Shown here in pieces: positions 18,387 through 29,220 of a stretch of DNA of 40,561 nt. Position 1 is the stretch's first letter; each line of letters opens with the position of its first letter. Both the position numbers and the translations under genes were made by a program. Origin of the DNA: a virus. Taxonomy: Duplodnaviria > Heunggongvirae > Uroviricota > Caudoviricetes. The DNA lies in IMG/VR virus record IMGVR_UViG_2734482585_000012; one strand, given 5' to 3'. Below the pieces are notes generated by a model, which worked only from the letters and a program-made list of their open reading frames with translations, was not told where the DNA came from and ran no database searches.

Positions 18387-19844
18387 TTAGGAGCGCCAAA
18401 AAAAACCTGAAAACAATATAATAACAGGATAAATTTCAAGGCGACCAAGAATCATAGCTATGCACATTAAATATTTTGCAATGTCATTAAGCACTCCGAA
18501 TGACGATGCAGTAGCCCCAAAACCTAATCCCATATTATTAATACATGCAGCCACTGTTGCAAATGATGTAAGAAAATCATATCCCATACCATTTAACACC
18601 AGTATAAAAAACACCGTGAAGAGAGTATAAAGAAAAAAGAAACTCCATACAGACCTCATTACACGATCTGTAACTATCTTCCCTCCTACATTTACACTCA
18701 ACAACGCTCTGGGATGAGAAAGCTGATTTATCTCGTGTTTGCTTTGTTTGAAAAGTATAAGAAATCGAAGTGACTTAATTCCACCACAGGTTGAACCTAT
18801 ACATCCCCCAAAGAAACTTGACAACAGCAAAAACACTATCGTGTGCGTGGGCCAGTTTGCATAATCCTGCGTAGCTAAACCATTATCAGTGAGCATGGAG
18901 CTGGCAAGAAAAAACGAATGAATAAAACTTCCATGCAAGTCATACATACCTATATGCCAGACCTGGAAAGAGGTAACAATGATCACCCCTAAGGCTATTA
19001 ACAGAAAGAAACGAAGTTCAATATCTCTGATTAAAGGTTTTATCGTTTTTCTGCTAATAACAATATACCAAAGAGTGAAGTTGAAAGCCGATAGCAGGGA
19101 AAAAGAACCAGCCACCAGCTCAACCAAATAGTTATTAAAATATCCGATACTCTCGCTATGAGTTGAGAAACCACCAAGCGAAACTGTGGAAATCCCGTGA
19201 CAAATAGCATCAAACAAAGGCATTCCTGCAAGTCTATAACAGACAATACAAGCAATACCTAATAAAGAATAAGTTATCCACAGTGTCCGTGACGTATCGG
19301 CCAGGCGGGGAGTGAGTTTGTCATCCTTAAATGGCCCCGGCATTTCTGACTGATAAAGCTTTGCACCACCAATACCCAATAATGGCAATACTGCAACCGC
19401 CAGAACAATAACTCCTAAACCACCTATAAAATTTAACTGTGACCGATAGTACAAATATGCCCGAGGTAATGAACTAACATCATCAATTACAGTTGCTCCT
19501 GTTGTTGTTATTCCAGAAACCCCTTCAAACAGAGCATCAATGAACGTTAAATTAAGTTCTGAGTCAATCCATAAAGGGAATGCACTAATAACAGAAAACA
19601 AAATCCAAAACATTACAATTATAATAAACCCATCACGGGTACGTAATTGAATGCCAGATTTCTTAGTTGTATACCACGCTCCGCCACCAATGCAAAAAAA
19701 TATAACGAAAGTTATAAAGAAAACGAACAGGCTTTTTTCTTTATAAAACAATGCTACAACCATTGGTGGCAACATTGAAAGACTATAGAGCCAAACCAGG
19801 AACCCACACATATGAGTAACAACTCTTACATGAGATGTATTCAT
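18387..19844 (-). CDS. trkG: TrkG/TrkH-family potassium uptake protein
   Basis: 485 aa from MNTSHVRVVTHMCGF…; polytopic membrane protein; the Rac prophage is known to carry trkG; region visibly AT-rich. Confidence 0.9.
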   Translation of the reverse strand: MNTSHVRVVTHMCGFLVWLYSLSMLPPMVVALFYKEKSLFVFFITFVIFFCIGGGAWYTTKKSGIQLRTRDGFIIIVMFWILFSVISAFPLWIDSELNLTFIDALFEGVSGITTTGATVIDDVSSLPRAYLYYRSQLNFIGGLGVIVLAVAVLPLLGIGGAKLYQSEMPGPFKDDKLTPRLADTSRTLWITYSLLGIACIVCYRLAGMPLFDAICHGISTVSLGGFSTHSESIGYFNNYLVELVAGSFSLLSAFNFTLWYIVISRKTIKPLIRDIELRFFLLIALGVIIVTSFQVWHIGMYDLHGSFIHSFFLASSMLTDNGLATQDYANWPTHTIVFLLLSSFFGGCIGSTCGGIKSLRFLILFKQSKHEINQLSHPRALLSVNVGGKIVTDRVMRSVWSFFFLYTLFTVFFILVLNGMGYDFLTSFATVAACINNMGLGFGATASSFGVLNDIAKYLMCIAMILGRLEIYPVIILFSGFFWRS

Positions 19845-19981
19845 ATCTAAATATTCTTTCAATTATAACCACCTTGCTGCAATATTATGATTATACTGTA
19901 TAAAATTTAACTCCTCTTAGATCTTACTTCACTGTTCCTTATGAAACAATCATCAAAATGAATCATATTGTAGTTAAGATT

Positions 19982-20446
19982 TTACTTTAAACACTGCTCG
20001 GTTATGTATTGCTGAGCACCTTCAAGTTGGGCCTGCATCATTACCAGTCGTTCCCGGAGGGTGAAATAATCCCGTTCAGCGGTGTCTGCCAGTCGGGGGG
20101 AGGCTGCATTATCCACGCCGGAGGCGGTGGTGGCTTCACGCACTGACTGACAGACTGCTTTGATGTGCAACCGACGACGACCAGCGGCAACATCATCACG
20201 CAGAGCATCATTTTCAGCTTTCGCATCAGCTAACTCCTTCGTGTATTTTGCATCGAGCGCAGCAACATCACGCTGACGCATCTGCATGTCAGTAATTGCC
20301 GCGTTCGCCAGCTTCAGTTCTCTGGCATTTTTGTCGCGCTGGGCTTTGTAGGTAATGGCGTTATCACGGTAATGATTAACAGCCCATGACAGGCAGACGA
20401 TGATGCAGATAACCAGAGCGGAGATAATCGCGGTTACTCTGTTCAT
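19982..20446 (-). CDS. Spanin inner-membrane subunit Rz
   Basis: 154 aa from [16 protein letters not shown]… with N-terminal TM and coiled-coil; ATGA overlap with endolysin stop. Confidence 0.85.
20041..20226 (-). CDS. Spanin outer-membrane lipoprotein Rz1 (embedded in Rz, +1 frame)
   Basis: 61 aa, lipobox VVGC, proline-rich (PPPPP…PPP), entirely nested in Rz. Confidence 0.8.
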
Positions 20447-20892: not shown

Positions 20893-21142
20893 NNNNNNNN
20901 NNNNNNNNNNNNNNNNNNNNNNNNNNNNNNNNNNNNNNNNNNNNNNNNNNNNNNNNNNNNNNNNNNNNNNNNNNNNNNNNNNNNNNNNNNNNNNNNNNNN
21001 NNNNNNNNNNNNNNNNNNNNNNNNNNNNNNNNNNNNNNNNNNNNNNNNNNNNNNNNNNNNNNNNNNNNNNNNNNNNNNNNNNNNNNNNNNNNNNNNNNNN
21101 NNNNNNNNNNNNNNNNNNNNNNNNNNNNNNNNNNNNNNNNNN
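20893..21142. other. Assembly gap (250 N)
   Basis: Run of n characters. Confidence 1.
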
Positions 21143-21154
21143 CATGGATTTCAT
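21143..21154 (-). CDS. Holin start (class II/pinholin-like dual-start Met-Lys-Ser-Met), remainder in gap
   Basis: Minus strand reads GGAGGTGAGGCT ATG AAA TCC ATG immediately before the N-run; MKSM dual start recalled from S21-type holins. Confidence 0.5.
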
Positions 21155-21258
21155 AGCCTCACCTCCGCACGGAACGGATGGCATAGTTATTATGTGTAGG
21201 CTTTCAGACACATCAATCAGAGCCTTAATTGATATATATGCTGGAGACGATGCAATAT

Positions 21259-21283
21259 AAAAAGCTCGCCGTAGCGAGCTAAT
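21259..21283 (-). terminator. Intrinsic terminator-like hairpin between lipoprotein gene and lysis cassette
   Basis: agctcgc-cgta-gcgagct perfect 7-bp stem; on minus strand followed by TTTTTATATT. Confidence 0.4.
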
Positions 21284-21405
21284 AAAATGTATTTCTCTGA
21301 TATTATGTTTATTTGTATTAGCTCAGACTTGACATCACAGGTTTCGTATATAGAACATCATCAAATCTGTCAGTTTGCTATGAATGAGATATAGTAATTG
21401 AAGAG

Positions 21406-21801
21406 CTAACCTCGCATGTCAAAGCCAGATTTCTGAAAATCTCTGTAGACTTCCGGATTGTTGAAGGCCGGAAATTTGGCTTTATGAGCTGCGGACTTTA
21501 TCGCTTCGCAATAGGCTTTATCACCGTTACTGGTAGATATTTTTAACGCCGTGCCATCCTGAGAGAATTCCATATGCAACCTGCATTTTTTCCCTTTCCA
21601 GTTATGCGGCTCATCAAGTTTGGCATTAATTGCAGCTCTGATTCCCCGCGCTTGCGCCCCCCATTCATCCTGATCATCCCAGCGTCCTGAACTGCAACTA
21701 CCTGTAGCAGTAGTTTTGTGGCAATCTGAAGGGTGTAAAGGTGTGCATCCCGCAACAAAACCGACCCAAAAAGTCAACATAACGATTTTCTTTAATCCCA
21801 C
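21406..21801 (-). CDS. Lipoprotein with TolA C-terminal (domain III)-like fold
   Basis: 131 aa; signal peptide plus lipobox VAGC; C-terminal region aligns by eye with E. coli TolA domain III, including two conserved Cys. Confidence 0.6.
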   Translation of the reverse strand: MGLKKIVMLTFWVGFVAGCTPLHPSDCHKTTATGSCSSGRWDDQDEWGAQARGIRAAINAKLDEPHNWKGKKCRLHMEFSQDGTALKISTSNGDKAYCEAIKSAAHKAKFPAFNNPEVYRDFQKSGFDMRG

Positions 21802-24254: not shown

Positions 24255-24853
24255 TACGCAAACTCCAGTAGTTGTGCGGCCACATTTTCAACTTCCTCCT
24301 GAGAGGAGAATTTACGGAACAGAATCCAGTTCCACAGCACATTCAGTACAGATTTATAAACCTGCTGAAACTCGACTTCGTCCATATTCGCAAAAGCGAT
24401 GGATTTTGCCCGACGCCCACGGCTACCGTCCGGATAAATATGCTCGGTGTAAAATCCGGCCTGAATGGTTACCCACTCGCGGAAAGCCTCAAACGACTTT
24501 AGCAACGCCGTATCCCGGGTTCTACGAGTCGCAACGGTGTTAAGGTATTGCTCTGCGGCATCACTCAGGGCTGGCGTGTGTTCCCGACCAACTGATTCGC
24601 ACAGGTAATCAACGAAACCAGACAGCAGTTCTCGTTCGCGAGGCGTGATCGCCCCACCGACCGGAGTCCAGTAATCGAATCCCAGTTGCAGGAGTTTGAA
24701 AAAACGCTTGTGGAATGCGTAGTTACGCACACGCTTAAAGTCTGCGTGTATCCACTCACCTATTTTGATTTGATGCAGAAAATCGCAACTCTCCGGCGTC
24801 GCCGGGAGAAGTAAACCAGAAGAGGTTTGTTTGACCAGTTGTATATGCGCCAT
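24254..24853 (-). CDS. Conserved nin-region phage protein, function unknown
   Basis: 199-aa ORF translationally coupled to the downstream gene; no motif recognised. Confidence 0.5.
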   Translation of the reverse strand: MAHIQLVKQTSSGLLLPATPESCDFLHQIKIGEWIHADFKRVRNYAFHKRFFKLLQLGFDYWTPVGGAITPRERELLSGFVDYLCESVGREHTPALSDAAEQYLNTVATRRTRDTALLKSFEAFREWVTIQAGFYTEHIYPDGSRGRRAKSIAFANMDEVEFQQVYKSVLNVLWNWILFRKFSSQEEVENVAAQLLEFA

Positions 24854-25133
24854 TTCTCAATCTCTCGATGGCGCAGCGCAGCAGATGCCAGTTGTTCAGG
24901 CTGACGAATAAAGTATAAATAAACTGGCTATGGTGTAAAGCCCCACATAGCATGAACAAACACTACATATCAAATAGCTGGTACAAGGATAGAAATACGA
25001 CACTTATTATTAAAAACGATTAGATAAATTACATTTTAATGTTATGCAAAAGTTCTTTTTTATCATAACATTTCAATAAAAGCATTACAGATGCAATCAT
25101 CCCGTCATCATCAATTATTTAAGGTGGTTAAAC

Positions 25134-25220
25134 ATGGAAAATAACAAGTTCGCACATCTCGCTCCTTTTTTATCCGTAATCCTTTTCGCTTGTTGTTTTA
25201 TATGGGCATTATTTTTATAA
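25134..25220 (+). CDS. Small hydrophobic peptide (28 aa), candidate membrane peptide
   Basis: Strong SD AAGGTGG 6 nt before ATG; reads MENNKFAHLAPFLSVILFACCFIWALFL; AT-rich moron context; below ORF-track size cutoff. Confidence 0.3.
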   Translation: MENNKFAHLAPFLSVILFACCFIWALFL

Positions 25221-25611
25221 AGTAGCCACATGATAAGTTGCTGGAATCATATTTCCCACTCAAGTCATTAACATTTGATAAGATATATCTAAAAGGACGC
25301 CTTTACATTATTTATGCGTATATAATTTATTTATATACACAGTAAAGGTATCCTGGGAAAATATTTATCGTTAAAAAATACATCATAAATAATTAAGCTG
25401 AAATTTCAGAACACAACTAATACACACAATAAGGTTCAGTAACAGTAATCTATGTGGACTACATCGAGATTTTTTGATTAAACTTTAATAACTTATTCCT
25501 AACACACAGAATGCATAAACTAAAAGTAAAACAAATAGTTATACGAAAAACAACCATATTTATTCTATCTTCTCCTCTAATCAACATATCAATTATGTGT
25601 TTCATAACAGC

Positions 25612-25654
25612 TTGACATAACCCTCCAAAAGATGCATTTTTAATGCATGTTTTG
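25612..25654 (+). promoter_or_regulatory. Promoter (-35 TTGACA) with NsrR-box-like inverted repeat upstream of the yeaR-like gene
   Basis: TTGACA at 25612-25617, then AAAGATGCATTTTTAATGCATGTTTT; close to the NsrR consensus as I recall it (about AAGATGCATTT-N-AAATGCATCTT). Confidence 0.5.
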
Positions 25655-25666
25655 GAGGAGGTGGTT

Positions 25667-26005
25667 ATGACACACAAGAGAATTCCTAAAGATTGGGTAA
25701 TCAAACGCTCAACTCCGTTCTTCACAAAAGAGAACGTACCTTCAGCGTTATTAACACATCATAATACAGCAGCAGGTGTTTTTGGGCAGTTGTGCGTAAT
25801 GGAAGGCACTGTAACATATTATGGTTTTACTGATGAGAATGCTACTGAACCGGAGATAAAAGTAGTCATTAATGCTGGCGCTTTTGCAACAAGCCCACCA
25901 CAATACTGGCACCGTGTTGAACTAAGCGATGATGCTCAGTTTAATATTAACTTTTGGGTCGCTCCAGACTTTTCGGGCGAAAAAGTCTATAGCACCAAAA
26001 AATAG
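25667..26005 (+). CDS. YeaR-like DUF1971 protein (cupin-like; NsrR-regulon paralog)
   Basis: 112 aa from MTHKRIPKDWVIKRSTPFF… with SD GGAGGAGG; resembles E. coli YeaR along its length as I recall it. Confidence 0.75.
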   Translation: MTHKRIPKDWVIKRSTPFFTKENVPSALLTHHNTAAGVFGQLCVMEGTVTYYGFTDENATEPEIKVVINAGAFATSPPQYWHRVELSDDAQFNINFWVAPDFSGEKVYSTKK

Positions 26006-26034
26006 ATGATCATATTAAAAATGCTTTAACAGTC

Positions 26035-26073
26035 AGACCCGGCAGGGCTATCCCCGACGGGTCTCATTTTTGT
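26035..26073 (+). terminator. Intrinsic terminator after the yeaR-like gene
   Basis: agacccg…cgggtct 7-bp stem followed by CATTTTTGT. Confidence 0.5.
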
Positions 26074-26625
26074 AAATATATTGGTTCTACATTGACAGGA
26101 GACTTCAACCATAAGAAGTAATCTGAATACTTGAGCAATAAATTTACTTAAGATTAATGAGCGCACCTTGCCGGACAAAGATAAACCAAGGTAACACCTT
26201 TTTTCTAGCCAGTATGTAATCAATCAGAAAGCCGCTCCATAAGAACAACAGCAAGACAATAAATTGCCATTACAGCCGCAATAGCCAGCGCACATTTGAG
26301 AACCAGCACGACAACCCCCTGTATTAGACGCACACCAGTCCTGATAAATATGAGGCTGTCTCGTCAGTGATTCAATACAACTATTGGGTATAGTTTCTGT
26401 GATTTTATTCTGTAGAAATGGAACACAACAACCAGTCACCACCAGCACTTCCTTAAATGCTCTAAGTCAGAAACAAGCCAACATTTTAGTCCGCTTTGAG
26501 CGATCTGCAGACATTGCTAGCAGCCTTCTGTGTGAATTCTCAGGGAGCAGGTCGGCATAGCATCACGTTGAGGCTCTTACCCTACTTGTTCACACCAACC
26601 CTAACTCCACAGACTGATTCATAAA

Positions 26626-27627
26626 TTAGTAATCTGCGTGTTTCGCACTTTTCAGAAATGCTTTCATATTTTCATTAGGTCGCTCAATTTCGAAGTTACT
26701 TCCATATAACTCTTGTAATTTTGGCCATAACTTACTTAATAACCCTCTCCTGCGATAAAATGGATGTATCCAAACGGTAGATAGGTACGGAGAATTTGCA
26801 TTTGAATTGTTTATTGTGACCAGCCCAACTAAACATTGTCGATAACCACTATTATCCATTGATTGTATTTCTTCGACGAATGGATACGCGATTACATCAG
26901 TCCAACCATGATCGGTTGTATCCCATTGCATTCCGTCATGACATTCCTTCGACTGATAGCGGCGTAAAGCTACACACGCGAGCTTTTGCCAATCTGGAGA
27001 ATTAATTGTGATCTCTTCATCGTATGACGCGCCTATTGGAGCGGGTATTGGTCTGATTAATCCAGCATGGCATTCATCATAGAACTTCATGTTTCCCTCA
27101 GAAACGTTGTGTACGTTGGGTTGCTCCATGTGTGCGCCATTCAAAAATAGCTCTGATAGTAGTGTATCTACACTGTAATCTTTATTGATTATTGTCGGCT
27201 TAGAGTTTTTCTTATTAAGGCCGCGAGTAACGATTTTTTGATCAATGTTAACAACATGGAATAATCCGTCGGGGAGGCTAGCGAACCACGATGGGGCATC
27301 GGACCAGAATAGCATGCCTTTTGTACTTCTTAAGAGTTTAATTAAGTTAATACAAGCTTCTTCACTAGTCTTGCCGTTGATGCGAAGTATGTTAGGACTA
27401 AAGTAATATTCATCCATATCAGGGAATGCAGCTTCGCAAAACTCCTGTACATAATTTAGCACCTGGATTCTACAGAGATCATCATAGCTGGTAATAACTA
27501 AGGGGGTATCTTCATTACTATTATGATTATCAATAATGCAATCTATAGCGAGACTTACTGCTTTGCGTATCACTTCAGTTGAATCTAACGACTCTAAAAA
27601 TTTTGTCTTTCGTGTGCGAATATCCAT
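26626..27627 (-). CDS. Hypothetical protein B of unrecognised two-gene cassette (possible C-terminal GNAT-like region)
   Basis: 333-aa ORF, AT-rich, 15 bp downstream of protein A; C-terminus …CLVGLVTI…WIHPFYRRRGLLSKLWPKLQELYG loosely resembles an acetyltransferase motif A. Confidence 0.6.
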   Translation of the reverse strand: MDIRTRKTKFLESLDSTEVIRKAVSLAIDCIIDNHNSNEDTPLVITSYDDLCRIQVLNYVQEFCEAAFPDMDEYYFSPNILRINGKTSEEACINLIKLLRSTKGMLFWSDAPSWFASLPDGLFHVVNIDQKIVTRGLNKKNSKPTIINKDYSVDTLLSELFLNGAHMEQPNVHNVSEGNMKFYDECHAGLIRPIPAPIGASYDEEITINSPDWQKLACVALRRYQSKECHDGMQWDTTDHGWTDVIAYPFVEEIQSMDNSGYRQCLVGLVTINNSNANSPYLSTVWIHPFYRRRGLLSKLWPKLQELYGSNFEIERPNENMKAFLKSAKHADY

Positions 27628-27642
27628 GTATGACCTGCGCTA

Positions 27643-28665
27643 TTAAAATTCATGAATGAACGGTTTGTCATCTGGTTGCAAAATGGTGGTTTTATTCGTT
27701 GCTACATTTAAACTGTTGTAGAGCATAATTGCCAGGTTCGATGCATTTTCAATCAGCGTTTCAAGATCCTGGTCTGTAATCACTACGAGGTTCCCTTCTT
27801 TATCCTTTCCACCACGATGCACTAAGTGATTTCGATTGAGGGTTGCCAATTCAATAGCTTCTATCGGACAGTCTTTTTGTACTTTTATATCGAATGTAGC
27901 TTCATAGCGGTCGATTACCTTTTTAGTGCTATGCCAGCTTGCACTGATCAAGTGTTCCTTGATTGACCTGATTAGCTCTCCCCTAATTTTCTCGATGGGT
28001 TCACCCTTGAAAGGCAACGCAGCAATATCTTTGCTTACTTTAAATTCAGTCTTACCTTTTTCTATACAATTGGCTATGTAGACATCATCTTTCTCTATAG
28101 AATTAATGAATAGCTCAACATAAAGCGTTTCCAAAGCTGTAATAACATTCGTGTAGAGCAAACTAAGCAAGTGGTTTTTTTGCTGTTGTTCAGTTTTATC
28201 TTTTGCAAGTTTTTTTATTTTATCGATATTATCAATGAATTTTAAATACGGATTACCGGAAGACGTTACAGCGTCGTAGATATCATCATCGTACCAATCA
28301 TCTATATTATTTGAGTTTCCAGACCAGTCAAAACATTGTGTTTGTAATTCATCTACTAATTCCTCAATATACTCAGATTTAACATATTGACCGAAGATGG
28401 ATTGTAGTTCTTCGCTCGCATCATACGGCCCGCCATATATGTAAGCATAGCCACCTTCTCTACTTTCATACGGACAAGCATTTGCCGGATCTTCAAAGTT
28501 TTCAAAGAACCAGTTTTTCATTACTTCGAGTTGATCTTTTTTGCTTATGTATTTTAAAGATTTTAGTGGAACTTTCTTTCCATTAACCTCGAAAACAATT
28601 TTCACGATGTAACGCTCCCTTGTATCAATTGCGCAACTATTATACCACAGCGAAATACAGGGCAT
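27643..28665 (-). CDS. Hypothetical protein A of unrecognised two-gene cassette (candidate HEPN-like C-terminal motif)
   Basis: 340 aa from MPCISLWYN… with strong SD AAGGAGG; C-terminal …LATLNRNHLVHRGGKDKEGN… fits Rx4-6H with polar residue after R; AT-rich. Confidence 0.6.
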   Translation of the reverse strand: MPCISLWYNSCAIDTRERYIVKIVFEVNGKKVPLKSLKYISKKDQLEVMKNWFFENFEDPANACPYESREGGYAYIYGGPYDASEELQSIFGQYVKSEYIEELVDELQTQCFDWSGNSNNIDDWYDDDIYDAVTSSGNPYLKFIDNIDKIKKLAKDKTEQQQKNHLLSLLYTNVITALETLYVELFINSIEKDDVYIANCIEKGKTEFKVSKDIAALPFKGEPIEKIRGELIRSIKEHLISASWHSTKKVIDRYEATFDIKVQKDCPIEAIELATLNRNHLVHRGGKDKEGNLVVITDQDLETLIENASNLAIMLYNSLNVATNKTTILQPDDKPFIHEF

Positions 28666-28803
28666 AACCTGCCTCCTTAAACTAACATACCATGAGCCAG
28701 CAATGTCCGCTATTGGCACAAAGCGGACAACCACGCTAGCTCTCCCCTGTGCCAGAAAAATGTCAATTTACATATGAACTAATGCTCTTTGATCTAGTAA
28801 CGT

Positions 28804-29220
28804 CTATAAATACCGAAGATTTCCTTGATAAAATGCCAGTACACGTTTCATAACTTCACTCTTCCGGCACTCGCGACAGATTATGTTCTGACGCCTGTCA
28901 TAGCGGCGTATTTCTCCGTCTGGTAATGACCAGATAAGGTCAGGATCAACCACAACCGTTTTTTTCACCTTTGCCCTGGATAGTTTTTTGCGGGCGTTTT
29001 TCCAATCCTTACGAGCCTGTTCAGACGGGAATAACCCATAGCCAGAGTTGTATACATCGCCACTGGCAACCAACTCTCTGGCAAGAATGCTCATCAGATA
29101 TCTTGTCGCACCTGTCTTGGCCTCCAGTTGCCTTAACGTCTCGCGCCCACTCTGGCGTACCAACTCAACAACCTGCTCCTTAATTTTTTCACGCTCTTCC
29201 TGTGTAAAAACTTTTGCCAT
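28804..29220 (-). CDS. Hypothetical phage protein (139 aa)
   Basis: SD GGAGG before MAKVFTQEEREK…; basic C-terminus with CRECRK; downstream of replication module. Confidence 0.55.
   Translation of the reverse strand: MAKVFTQEEREKIKEQVVELVRQSGRETLRQLEAKTGATRYLMSILARELVASGDVYNSGYGLFPSEQARKDWKNARKKLSRAKVKKTVVVDPDLIWSLPDGEIRRYDRRQNIICRECRKSEVMKRVLAFYQGNLRYL

Follow-up and report, generated by a model that had tools for sequence, protein, structure and literature searches.

HepS is a solo HEPN anticodon nuclease encoded by the Gifsy-1 prophage of Salmonella that brings about abortive infection. It is made constitutively and is auto-inhibited until a tail-tip protein of a phage acts as its trigger (Sargen et al., Nature 2026, PMC13043305). 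For a larger architecture, in which a domain termed HEPN/RES-NTD1 is joined to a HEPN domain of the MAE_18760 / Ribo L-PSP type, computational work in 2013 predicted catalytic activity, a distant relationship to AbiD/AbiF, and a role as a conflict system, with KPK_1764 of Klebsiella pneumoniae as the NTD1 exemplar. RES, ABC ATPase, and further effectors carry the NTD1 domain as well (PMC3710099). Our literature search found no experimental work on the HEPN/RES-NTD1 plus HEPN architecture. Here, we describe two adjacent genes, A and B, in a 40,561-nucleotide stretch of DNA from a virus of the Caudoviricetes (IMG/VR record IMGVR_UViG_2734482585_000012). This whole stretch is referred to as the window, and all positions are given in it. 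Gene A encodes a protein of the above architecture and gene B a protein with a GNAT fold. The reading that we favour, with moderate confidence, is that they form a cassette of anti-phage cargo that moves horizontally as a self-contained unit and here occupies the replication/nin hotspot of a Rac-type prophage.

The context of A and B is what suggests a defence phenotype. The short repeats that surround A+B also bracket Gabija, Dsr1, DRT RT_UG17, and PD-T7-1 elsewhere. In related prophages, the cargo swapped at the same break points includes AbiH, SMEK with a methyltransferase, an AAA ATPase, 3HP, and PD-T7-1, among other genes. Homologues of A that occur without B lie beside ApeA_NTD1, int/xis, P4-type integrase, AbiH, Abi_alpha, restriction endonuclease, and PRTase-CE genes. 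HEPN abortive-infection proteins in prophage hotspots are of an already known kind. Neither PADLOC 2.0 nor the literature searched contains the A+B combination, and the boundary-repeat architecture common to many defence cassettes is the more unusual result.

Gene order, limits, and mobility of the cassette

The host element is a Rac-type lambdoid prophage of Escherichia coli, and an identical stretch is present in strain FORC_081. The Prokaryotic Genome Annotation Pipeline (PGAP) lists for FORC_081 the order recET, kilR, sieB, ralR, ydaT, ydaU, DnaC, DUF1627, and DUF977, then two 'hypothetical proteins', and past these DUF1971, DUF1367, DUF1364, DUF1133, the lysis genes, and trkG. The A+B pair is flanked by ydaT/ydaU/DnaC/DUF1627/DUF977 on one side and by DUF1367/DUF1364/DUF1133 on the other. 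A first-pass annotation, made from the letters of the window, had described two co-oriented minus-strand open reading frames (ORFs) 15 bp apart, visibly AT-rich against their flanks, in the lambdoid cargo hotspot between the replication and nin/Q genes. This description holds in each respect. Gene B occupies 26626..27627 on the minus strand (333 aa) and gene A lies in the same orientation beyond a 15-nt gap (27628-27642). Comparison of base composition gives a GC content of 0.361 for A and 0.391 for B, with values at third codon positions (GC3) of 0.346 and 0.356, against 0.47-0.53 (GC3 0.47-0.63) in the neighbouring backbone genes and about 0.50 in the flanks. When the variability of the cassette in related prophages was checked, different cargo was found at exactly this place.

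The start of gene A had to be revised. The 340-aa ORF from ATG 28665 that had been reported is present, as is the AAGGAGG 6 nt ahead of this ATG, but the most likely start is GTG 28605, which lies 60 nt further downstream and gives a protein of 320 aa (27643..28605, minus strand). This start is preferred because PGAP uses it and homologues begin at the same point. ATG 28665 is disfavoured because three other cassette copies read ATA there and because a conserved extended -10 element lies downstream of it. The peptide LATLNRNHLVHRGG is found in A and the peptide WIHPFYRRRGLLSKLWPKLQELYG in B. Homologues of each protein reach down to about 26-38% identity. In comparisons with seven divergent loci, in which dS reaches up to 0.65, A has a ratio of nonsynonymous to synonymous substitution rates (dN/dS) of 0.12-0.19 and B one of 0.20-0.42. 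As these ratios are well below 1, A and B are real genes under selection.

The whole mobile cassette spans 26489..28728 (minus strand) and consists of an L repeat, a leader, A, B, a 3' tail, and an R repeat. Its GC content is 0.390, versus 0.453 for the window. Flanks were compared among paired loci from the Serratia grimesii chromosome, islands in metagenomes from soil and rhizosphere, and distinct prophages. Their homology with the window ends about 124 bp upstream of the GTG of A and about 137 bp past the stop of B, and A+B, judged by these flanks, travels between unrelated contexts as a single unit. The leader holds a predicted extended -10 promoter element, TGGTATAAT (28639..28647, minus strand), which is kept as TGGTA[T/C]AAT in copies from other contexts. 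A segment at 26205-26503 is conserved across prophages with differing cargo and represents the right flank of the hotspot, on the side that faces hokD in relatives; a 74-aa ORF within it (26224-26448, minus strand) is of doubtful coding status.

Boundary repeats and the cargo they enclose

The cassette is bounded by two copies of a 30-nt, dyad-symmetric repeat with the consensus GTCCGC-N12-GCGGAC-ATTGCT. The L-type repeat at the 5' boundary, GTCCGCTTTGTGCCAATAGCGGACATTGCT, lies at 28699..28728 on the minus strand and is a dyad-symmetric hairpin with the ATTGCT tail pointing inward. The R-type repeat at the 3' boundary, GTCCGCTTTGAGCGATCTGCAGACATTGCT, lies at 26489..26518 on the plus strand, inverted relative to the first. 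They fall within the best inverted repeat of the region, in which 46 nt (28696-28741) pair with 26476-26521 at 72% complementarity. Exactly two occurrences of the motif are found in the window of 40.5 kb, against none expected from shuffles. The L flavour, with the loop GTGCCA, stands 5' of the cargo and the R flavour, with the loop GAGCGA, stands 3' of it; ATTGCT points inward in both.

Cassettes that carry other cargo have the L repeat conserved at their 5' edge, and the R-type repeat also closes cassettes carrying 3HP, PD-T7-1, DRT-UG17, Dsr1, and others. Both occur on either side of a 3HP module (Hp1 5e-41, and Hp2) in the same DUF977 hotspot. Loci are designated by L-numbers; those of both protein families were fetched from genomic, metagenomic, and viral sequences and searched with family hidden Markov models. 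Repeats are borne by L007, L008, L030-L035, L121, and L172-L220. The bounded cargo is A+B in the window and many loci, B alone with repeats on both sides in L121, PD-T7-1 (3e-69) in L174 and L188, DRT RT_UG17 (1e-155) in L176 and L193, Dsr1 (1e-290) in L183 and L211, an AriA/PtuA-like ATPase with a methylase in L206, and AbiH with a partner gene in L098 and L219. Gabija (GajA 9e-205, GajB 7e-123) directly adjoins A+B in L032, a chromosomal island near ychF, where the array at L032:134-6679 reads L repeat, GajA-GajB, L repeat, A-B, R repeat, a 263-aa gene, R and L repeats, an empty unit of ~200 bp, and R repeat. Beyond the array come a transposase whose N-terminal sequence suggests that it is IS110-like and a fragment of an integrase. 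In such tandem arrangements the distance from R to the next L is 38-46 bp, across 13 distinct junctions. The repeat is low in copy number, being found in 929 of the 5426 complete E. coli genomes at 1-3 places each, and in the inspected examples it stands directly after the DUF977 gene of Rac/Qin-type prophages.

Two further repeat-bounded ORFs gave no PADLOC hit: a 436-aa ORF in L190 (882-2192 of the re-oriented sub-region) and a 466-aa ORF in L182 (553-1953 of its sub-region). The two carry Rx4H-like motifs, RNAIVH and RSKIVH. Their sequences make it possible that these proteins are further, uncharacterised HEPN defence genes.

The boundary hairpins were also considered as RNA structures, and this was rejected. 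Their fold z-scores are weak (-2.0 and -0.5), and in a stem-independent collection the sequence is conserved and lacks compensatory covariation. No U-tract terminator accompanies the hairpins, no Rfam family was found in 24800-29000, and a literature search found no earlier description of the repeats. The survey of P2 and P4 prophage hotspots makes no mention of inverted repeats or palindromes (Rousset et al. 2022, PMC9122126). Since neither RNA covariation, a terminator, an Rfam family, nor a literature description was found, the repeats are treated as sequence-specific boundary or recombination sites.

A more far-reaching reading, which we consider possible but doubtful, is that the L and R repeats are the recombination sites of an undescribed cassette-exchange system that shuffles defence modules, and that A+B is a new system in which the GNAT protein acts by protein acetylation. 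Such a system would move A+B, Gabija, Dsr1, DRT-UG17, PD-T7-1, 3HP, AbiH, and unknown modules between the lambdoid-prophage hotspots and the chromosomal islands of Enterobacterales, and would be integron-like with a different site architecture. To our knowledge, protein acetylation has not yet been found as a mechanism in anti-phage immunity.

The two proteins and their pairing

The family of protein A comprises more than 120 cluster representatives, and an alignment of 55 sequences (87-26% identity) underlies the statements below. Residues about 1-100 (28306..28605, minus strand) form HEPN/RES N-terminal domain 1 (PF18870). The window protein scores 22.2 bits against this profile (HEPN_RES_NTD1, E 1.9e-4; gathering score 27.4), and 52 of the 55 family members match it at E < 0.01. 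The conserved core of the domain is WFxxNFEDPxxxxPYESREGGYxYIYGGPY. On several viral contigs (L163-L171), proteins share with A only this domain (profile positions ~5-130) and differ in their C-terminal parts, which fits NTD1 as a portable regulatory module. Residues about 140-308 (27682..28188, minus strand) form a HEPN domain of the RiboL-PSP / MAE_18760 type. For PF18735 (HEPN_RiboL-PSP), the window protein has no match at E <= 1; 28 of the 55 homologues do match, with a best E of 7e-11, and a precomputed PF18735 annotation is present on many homologues of A. In the AlphaFold2 model of A, with a predicted local distance difference test (pLDDT) score of 87, the C-terminal domain is the all-alpha, up-down helical bundle of the HEPN superfamily. 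A search of the family profile against all PDB sequences gave nothing significant.

The Rx4H catalytic motif of A, read from the codons at 27817..27834 (minus strand), is R258-N-H-L-V-H263 and is followed by R264. R258, H263, R264, E159, and W224-H225 are invariant in the 55 sequences, down to 26% identity. The first-pass annotation had pointed to a HEPN Rx4-6H motif with a polar residue after the arginine in A, and a motif of this form is indeed conserved throughout the family. A is predicted to be a HEPN ribonuclease.

The family of protein B has 66 cluster representatives, and 45 members were used for a Pfam check. Residues 1-190 (27058..27627, minus strand) form an alpha/beta domain that is unique to the family, has many invariant residues, and has no Pfam match. 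When these 190 residues alone were searched with phmmer against 1.84 billion representatives, all 20 hits were B-family proteins or fragments. The idea that this domain is a shared adaptor fused to other effectors was rejected, as it is found only in B. Residues about 191-333 (26629..27057, minus strand) have the alpha/beta fold of GNAT proteins, which here stops after alpha4 without the usual C-terminal strands. Against Acetyltransf_1 the window protein reaches 19.9 bits (cut-off 20.7), and 17 of the 45 family members match. The AlphaFold2 model of B has a pLDDT of 90.6 and a predicted template modelling score of 0.83. Its best structural matches are the protein acetyltransferases ATAT-2, ESCO1, NatD, HAT1, and Tip60; the top Foldseek hits are the two-domain HAT1 and then MYST enzymes, and the resemblance to HAT1 over the full length is weak. 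As with A, the family profile found nothing significant among all PDB sequences. A loose likeness to GNAT motif A had been noted near the C-terminus of B. In the region R292 R R G295 L L297 (26737..26754, minus strand), R292 is invariant in the family alignment, but several homologues have R or Q in place of G295, and L or M takes the last position, where G or A is usual. The acetyl-CoA loop is for this reason called non-canonical, and acyltransferase activity of B, on the evidence of motif and model, is plausible but uncertain. Neither protein showed confident homology to a non-defence phage function, and the HEPN and acetyltransferase folds that had been anticipated are both present in the predictions. 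The PHROGs matched (17908 and 16994) are both of 'unknown function', and NCBIfam returned only noise. Because the window proteins stay below the Pfam gathering cut-offs, the domain calls for A and B rest on family-level matches and predicted folds.

The two genes are co-inherited in this lineage, and each works without the other elsewhere. A adjoins B only at ~84% identity or more between A and the window copy; the gene order is then constant, most copies have the same gap of a few nucleotides, and the two ORFs abut or overlap in L033 and L034. All of these copies of A are accompanied by B or at least by its 5' part. In the 5426 complete E. coli genomes, A and B occur in the same 209 (about 4%). 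Carriers include the extraintestinal and avian pathogenic lineages (ExPEC/APEC), with S88, IHE3034, and the type strain ATCC 11775; about 205 of the 209 have intact genes, and A is truncated in 4. In three loci (L008, L120, L121), B occurs alone at 86% identity as a deletion derivative of the A+B cassette that retains the promoter element. L008:5817-6001 and L120:5817-6001 keep the 5' repeat, the leader of A, and the last ~60 nt of A fused ahead of B, and L121:5876-6001 has a different junction. Because two different junctions are found, A was lost at least twice with the promoter and B retained. Insertion sequences (IS) mark other copies: in strain AHB12 (L217) IS1 truncates A and leaves B intact, and in two strains (L215, L216) IS2 and ISSen4 lie upstream of or around gene A. 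In SF-173 (L214), IS1 splits B after about residue 187 and removes the GNAT domain, and A is intact and identical; the GNAT domain of B is thus not needed to tolerate A.

Beyond this lineage the families are largely separate. Every homologue of A at <=74% identity lacks B, A is absent from 10 of the 12 genomic loci of B, and clustering of the neighbours in about 60 A-only and 10 B-only loci gave no conserved partner beyond local synteny. Solo A occurs in a P2-like phage between gpA and Ogr/portal/terminase, adjoining an ApeA_NTD1 protein; between an integrase and an excisionase-like helix-turn-helix gene; next to P4-type integrases; beside a DUF1367 nin gene; and adjoining AbiH, Abi_alpha, DpnII-type restriction endonuclease, and PRTase-CE genes. 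Solo B is found where the genome is variable, with HerA-like and Tse2-like genes nearby or a P4-alpha-type primase ahead of it. The occurrence of each protein alone, the two A deletions that keep the promoter and B, and the reciprocal IS1 alleles argue for autonomy of A and B.

These data bear on an explanation modelled on the minimal nucleotidyltransferase (MNT) AMPylating HEPN toxins, according to which A is a constitutively toxic HEPN RNase and B neutralizes or licenses it by acetylation, so that the pair would be an obligate or type VII-like toxin-antitoxin whose block is relieved by infection. By analogy this is conceivable, and the close spacing of the genes (15 bp, or an overlap of 4 nt in L033 and L034), the single promoter region, the similar dS of A and B in most loci, and the place of HEPN-MNT toxins among the closest structural relatives of the HEPN domain of A all agree with it. 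So does the asymmetry of loss, which is that expected of a toxin and its antidote: A at 84% identity or above is never without the 5' part of B, while B alone arose at least twice. Against it stand the majority of A-family members (at <=74% identity) with neither B nor another conserved neighbour, the majority of B-family members without A, and the confinement of the N-terminal domain of B to B, with no link to HEPN proteins in general. The SF-173 allele, an intact A beside a split B, lowers the weight of the strict form in particular, and we regard the toxin-antitoxin explanation as unlikely. The first-pass reading of the pair as a candidate anti-phage or abortive-infection module, in a recurring defence architecture of a HEPN RNase with a second enzyme, is supported, but the pairing is not obligate, and the implied obligate HEPN-plus-partner architecture is weakened because A and B are each alone in most of their families.

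A non-coding, very AT-rich stretch (25001-25500, GC 0.278) lies between the cassette and the nin genes, and the plus-strand DUF1971/TehB-like gene that follows it (25643-26005) may be further cargo. Other sharply AT-rich islands (GC 0.27-0.32) at 501-1000, 19501-20000, and 21001-21500 could be morons, and one of them adjoins the trkG gene (18387-19862).

Weighing the readings against described systems

In the defence reading, the cassette would probably be transcribed in the lysogen from its own extended -10 promoter. Protein A would be the main effector, its Rx4H active site presumably formed across a dimer, and the HEPN/RES-NTD1 domain would most likely hold the nuclease off or sense the trigger. 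When another phage infects, A would cut RNA, either tRNA or mRNA, translation would stop, and the infection would abort, an outcome resembling that of HepS or AbiD/AbiF-type proteins. B, co-transcribed with A and largely autonomous, would be a second effector, sensor, or modulator and not an indispensable antitoxin; it is regarded as a candidate acyltransferase of the protein-acetyltransferase type, in which a GNAT fold follows an N-terminal domain specific to the family.

Several observations weigh against this reading. PADLOC 2.0 has no model for A or B; its best result for A is a spurious PglX fragment at E 0.01, and B gives no hit. The literature search found no paper naming A or B. Neither window protein reaches its Pfam cut-off (22.2 versus 27.4 for NTD1 and 19.9 versus 20.7 for GNAT), and A has no direct match to PF18735. 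Catalysis by B is made uncertain by the non-conserved motif A glycine and the absent C-terminal GNAT strands. The TGGTATAAT promoter is a conserved sequence match that a simple -35/-10 scan did not report; the scan for promoters and terminators gave nothing above shuffled expectation and no terminator. The hotspot also holds Hok/Gef, KilA-N, and methyltransferase genes, and guilt by association in a hotspot is not proof of defence.

Another explanation is that the pair is an accessory moron with a non-defence role, for instance in counter-defence or host modulation, in which the GNAT protein would modify a host or phage protein or a small molecule and the HEPN protein would act in RNA processing or as a non-catalytic binder. 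It might instead be a selfish addiction module serving its own stability alone. The Hok/Gef, KilA-N, and DUF551 genes in the hotspot and the lack of a PADLOC hit are compatible with this, as is the likeness of B to eukaryotic-type protein acetyltransferases, which phages could use on host factors. It is at odds with the invariant Rx4H motif, the location of the A family near Abi and restriction genes, both in defence islands and at P2 and int-xis hotspots, and the boundary architecture that the cassette has in common with at least six validated defence systems, and we hold it to be unlikely as well. Annotation as hypothetical proteins and the few copies with IS elements or frameshifts might point to A and B being mis-called ORFs or remnants in decay that now lack a function. 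The dN/dS values (0.12-0.42, with dS reaching up to 0.65) practically exclude this, and the genes are intact in about 205 of the 209 carriers and have confident predicted folds and many invariant residues.

If the defence phenotype is confirmed, a defence cassette would be added for about 4% of complete E. coli genomes, and the HEPN/RES-NTD1 domain predicted in 2013 would gain its first experimental handle. No earlier prophage defence cassette would have had a component of the acetyltransferase type like B, whose orphan family is very narrow. The boundary repeats, whatever A and B do, provide a simple sequence tag for finding defence cargo and offer a hypothesis for the exchange of defence genes between prophages and chromosomal islands; they would be of wider interest if they mark a dedicated exchange mechanism.

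With respect to position, the locus is like the P2 and P4 prophage hotspots, in which interchangeable defence cargo occupies a fixed place (Rousset et al. 2022, PMC9122126). The cargo units described here resemble integron arrays in their tandem occurrence and in their delimitation by short repeated sites. An integron cassette has one attC site, with R''/R' core sites (GTTRRRY), and integrons encode IntI, whereas the present units have two inverted 30-nt repeats whose consensus is different; the annotated regions showed no intI, and no systematic search for an integron integrase was made.

At the level of proteins, B is like the GNAT toxins TacAT, AtaRT, and KacAT in having a GNAT fold on a mobile element, and by analogy translation-blocking acetylation is a plausible way for B to abort infection. 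These toxins are about 160-180 aa long with an adjacent ribbon-helix-helix (RHH) antitoxin; B has 333 aa with an orphan N-terminal domain, no RHH hit was found next to it, where the upstream gene encodes the HEPN protein, and its best structural matches are protein lysine and N-terminal acetyltransferases (ATAT, ESCO1, NatD, HAT1, MYST) and not TacAT-type toxins. In the type VII HEPN-MNT system (HepT/MntA), the partner is a minimal nucleotidyltransferase, whereas that of A has a GNAT fold, and a Pfam scan found no nucleotidyltransferase in the cassette. Unlike HepT, A has an extra N-terminal domain, its partnership is not family-wide, and it tolerates loss of the catalytic domain of its partner. 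The family described in 2013 has the same two-domain architecture as A, and A is a member at the family level; its reported neighbours are ParB or ParA/Soj and not GNAT, and a prophage hotspot, a phenotype, and boundary repeats were not described for it (PMC3710099). HepS has fewer than 250 aa, the motif R100-H105, and no conserved partner gene, whereas A has 320 aa, an N-terminal HEPN/RES-NTD1, the motif R258-H263, and a co-transcribed GNAT gene. This size and domain composition set A apart from the HepS family, and no PDB sequence matched the A profile. Both are prophage HEPN proteins with an Rx4-6H motif, encoded in the accessory region after the replication genes of a lambdoid prophage, and by this analogy HepS is the closest precedent and the best functional model for A.

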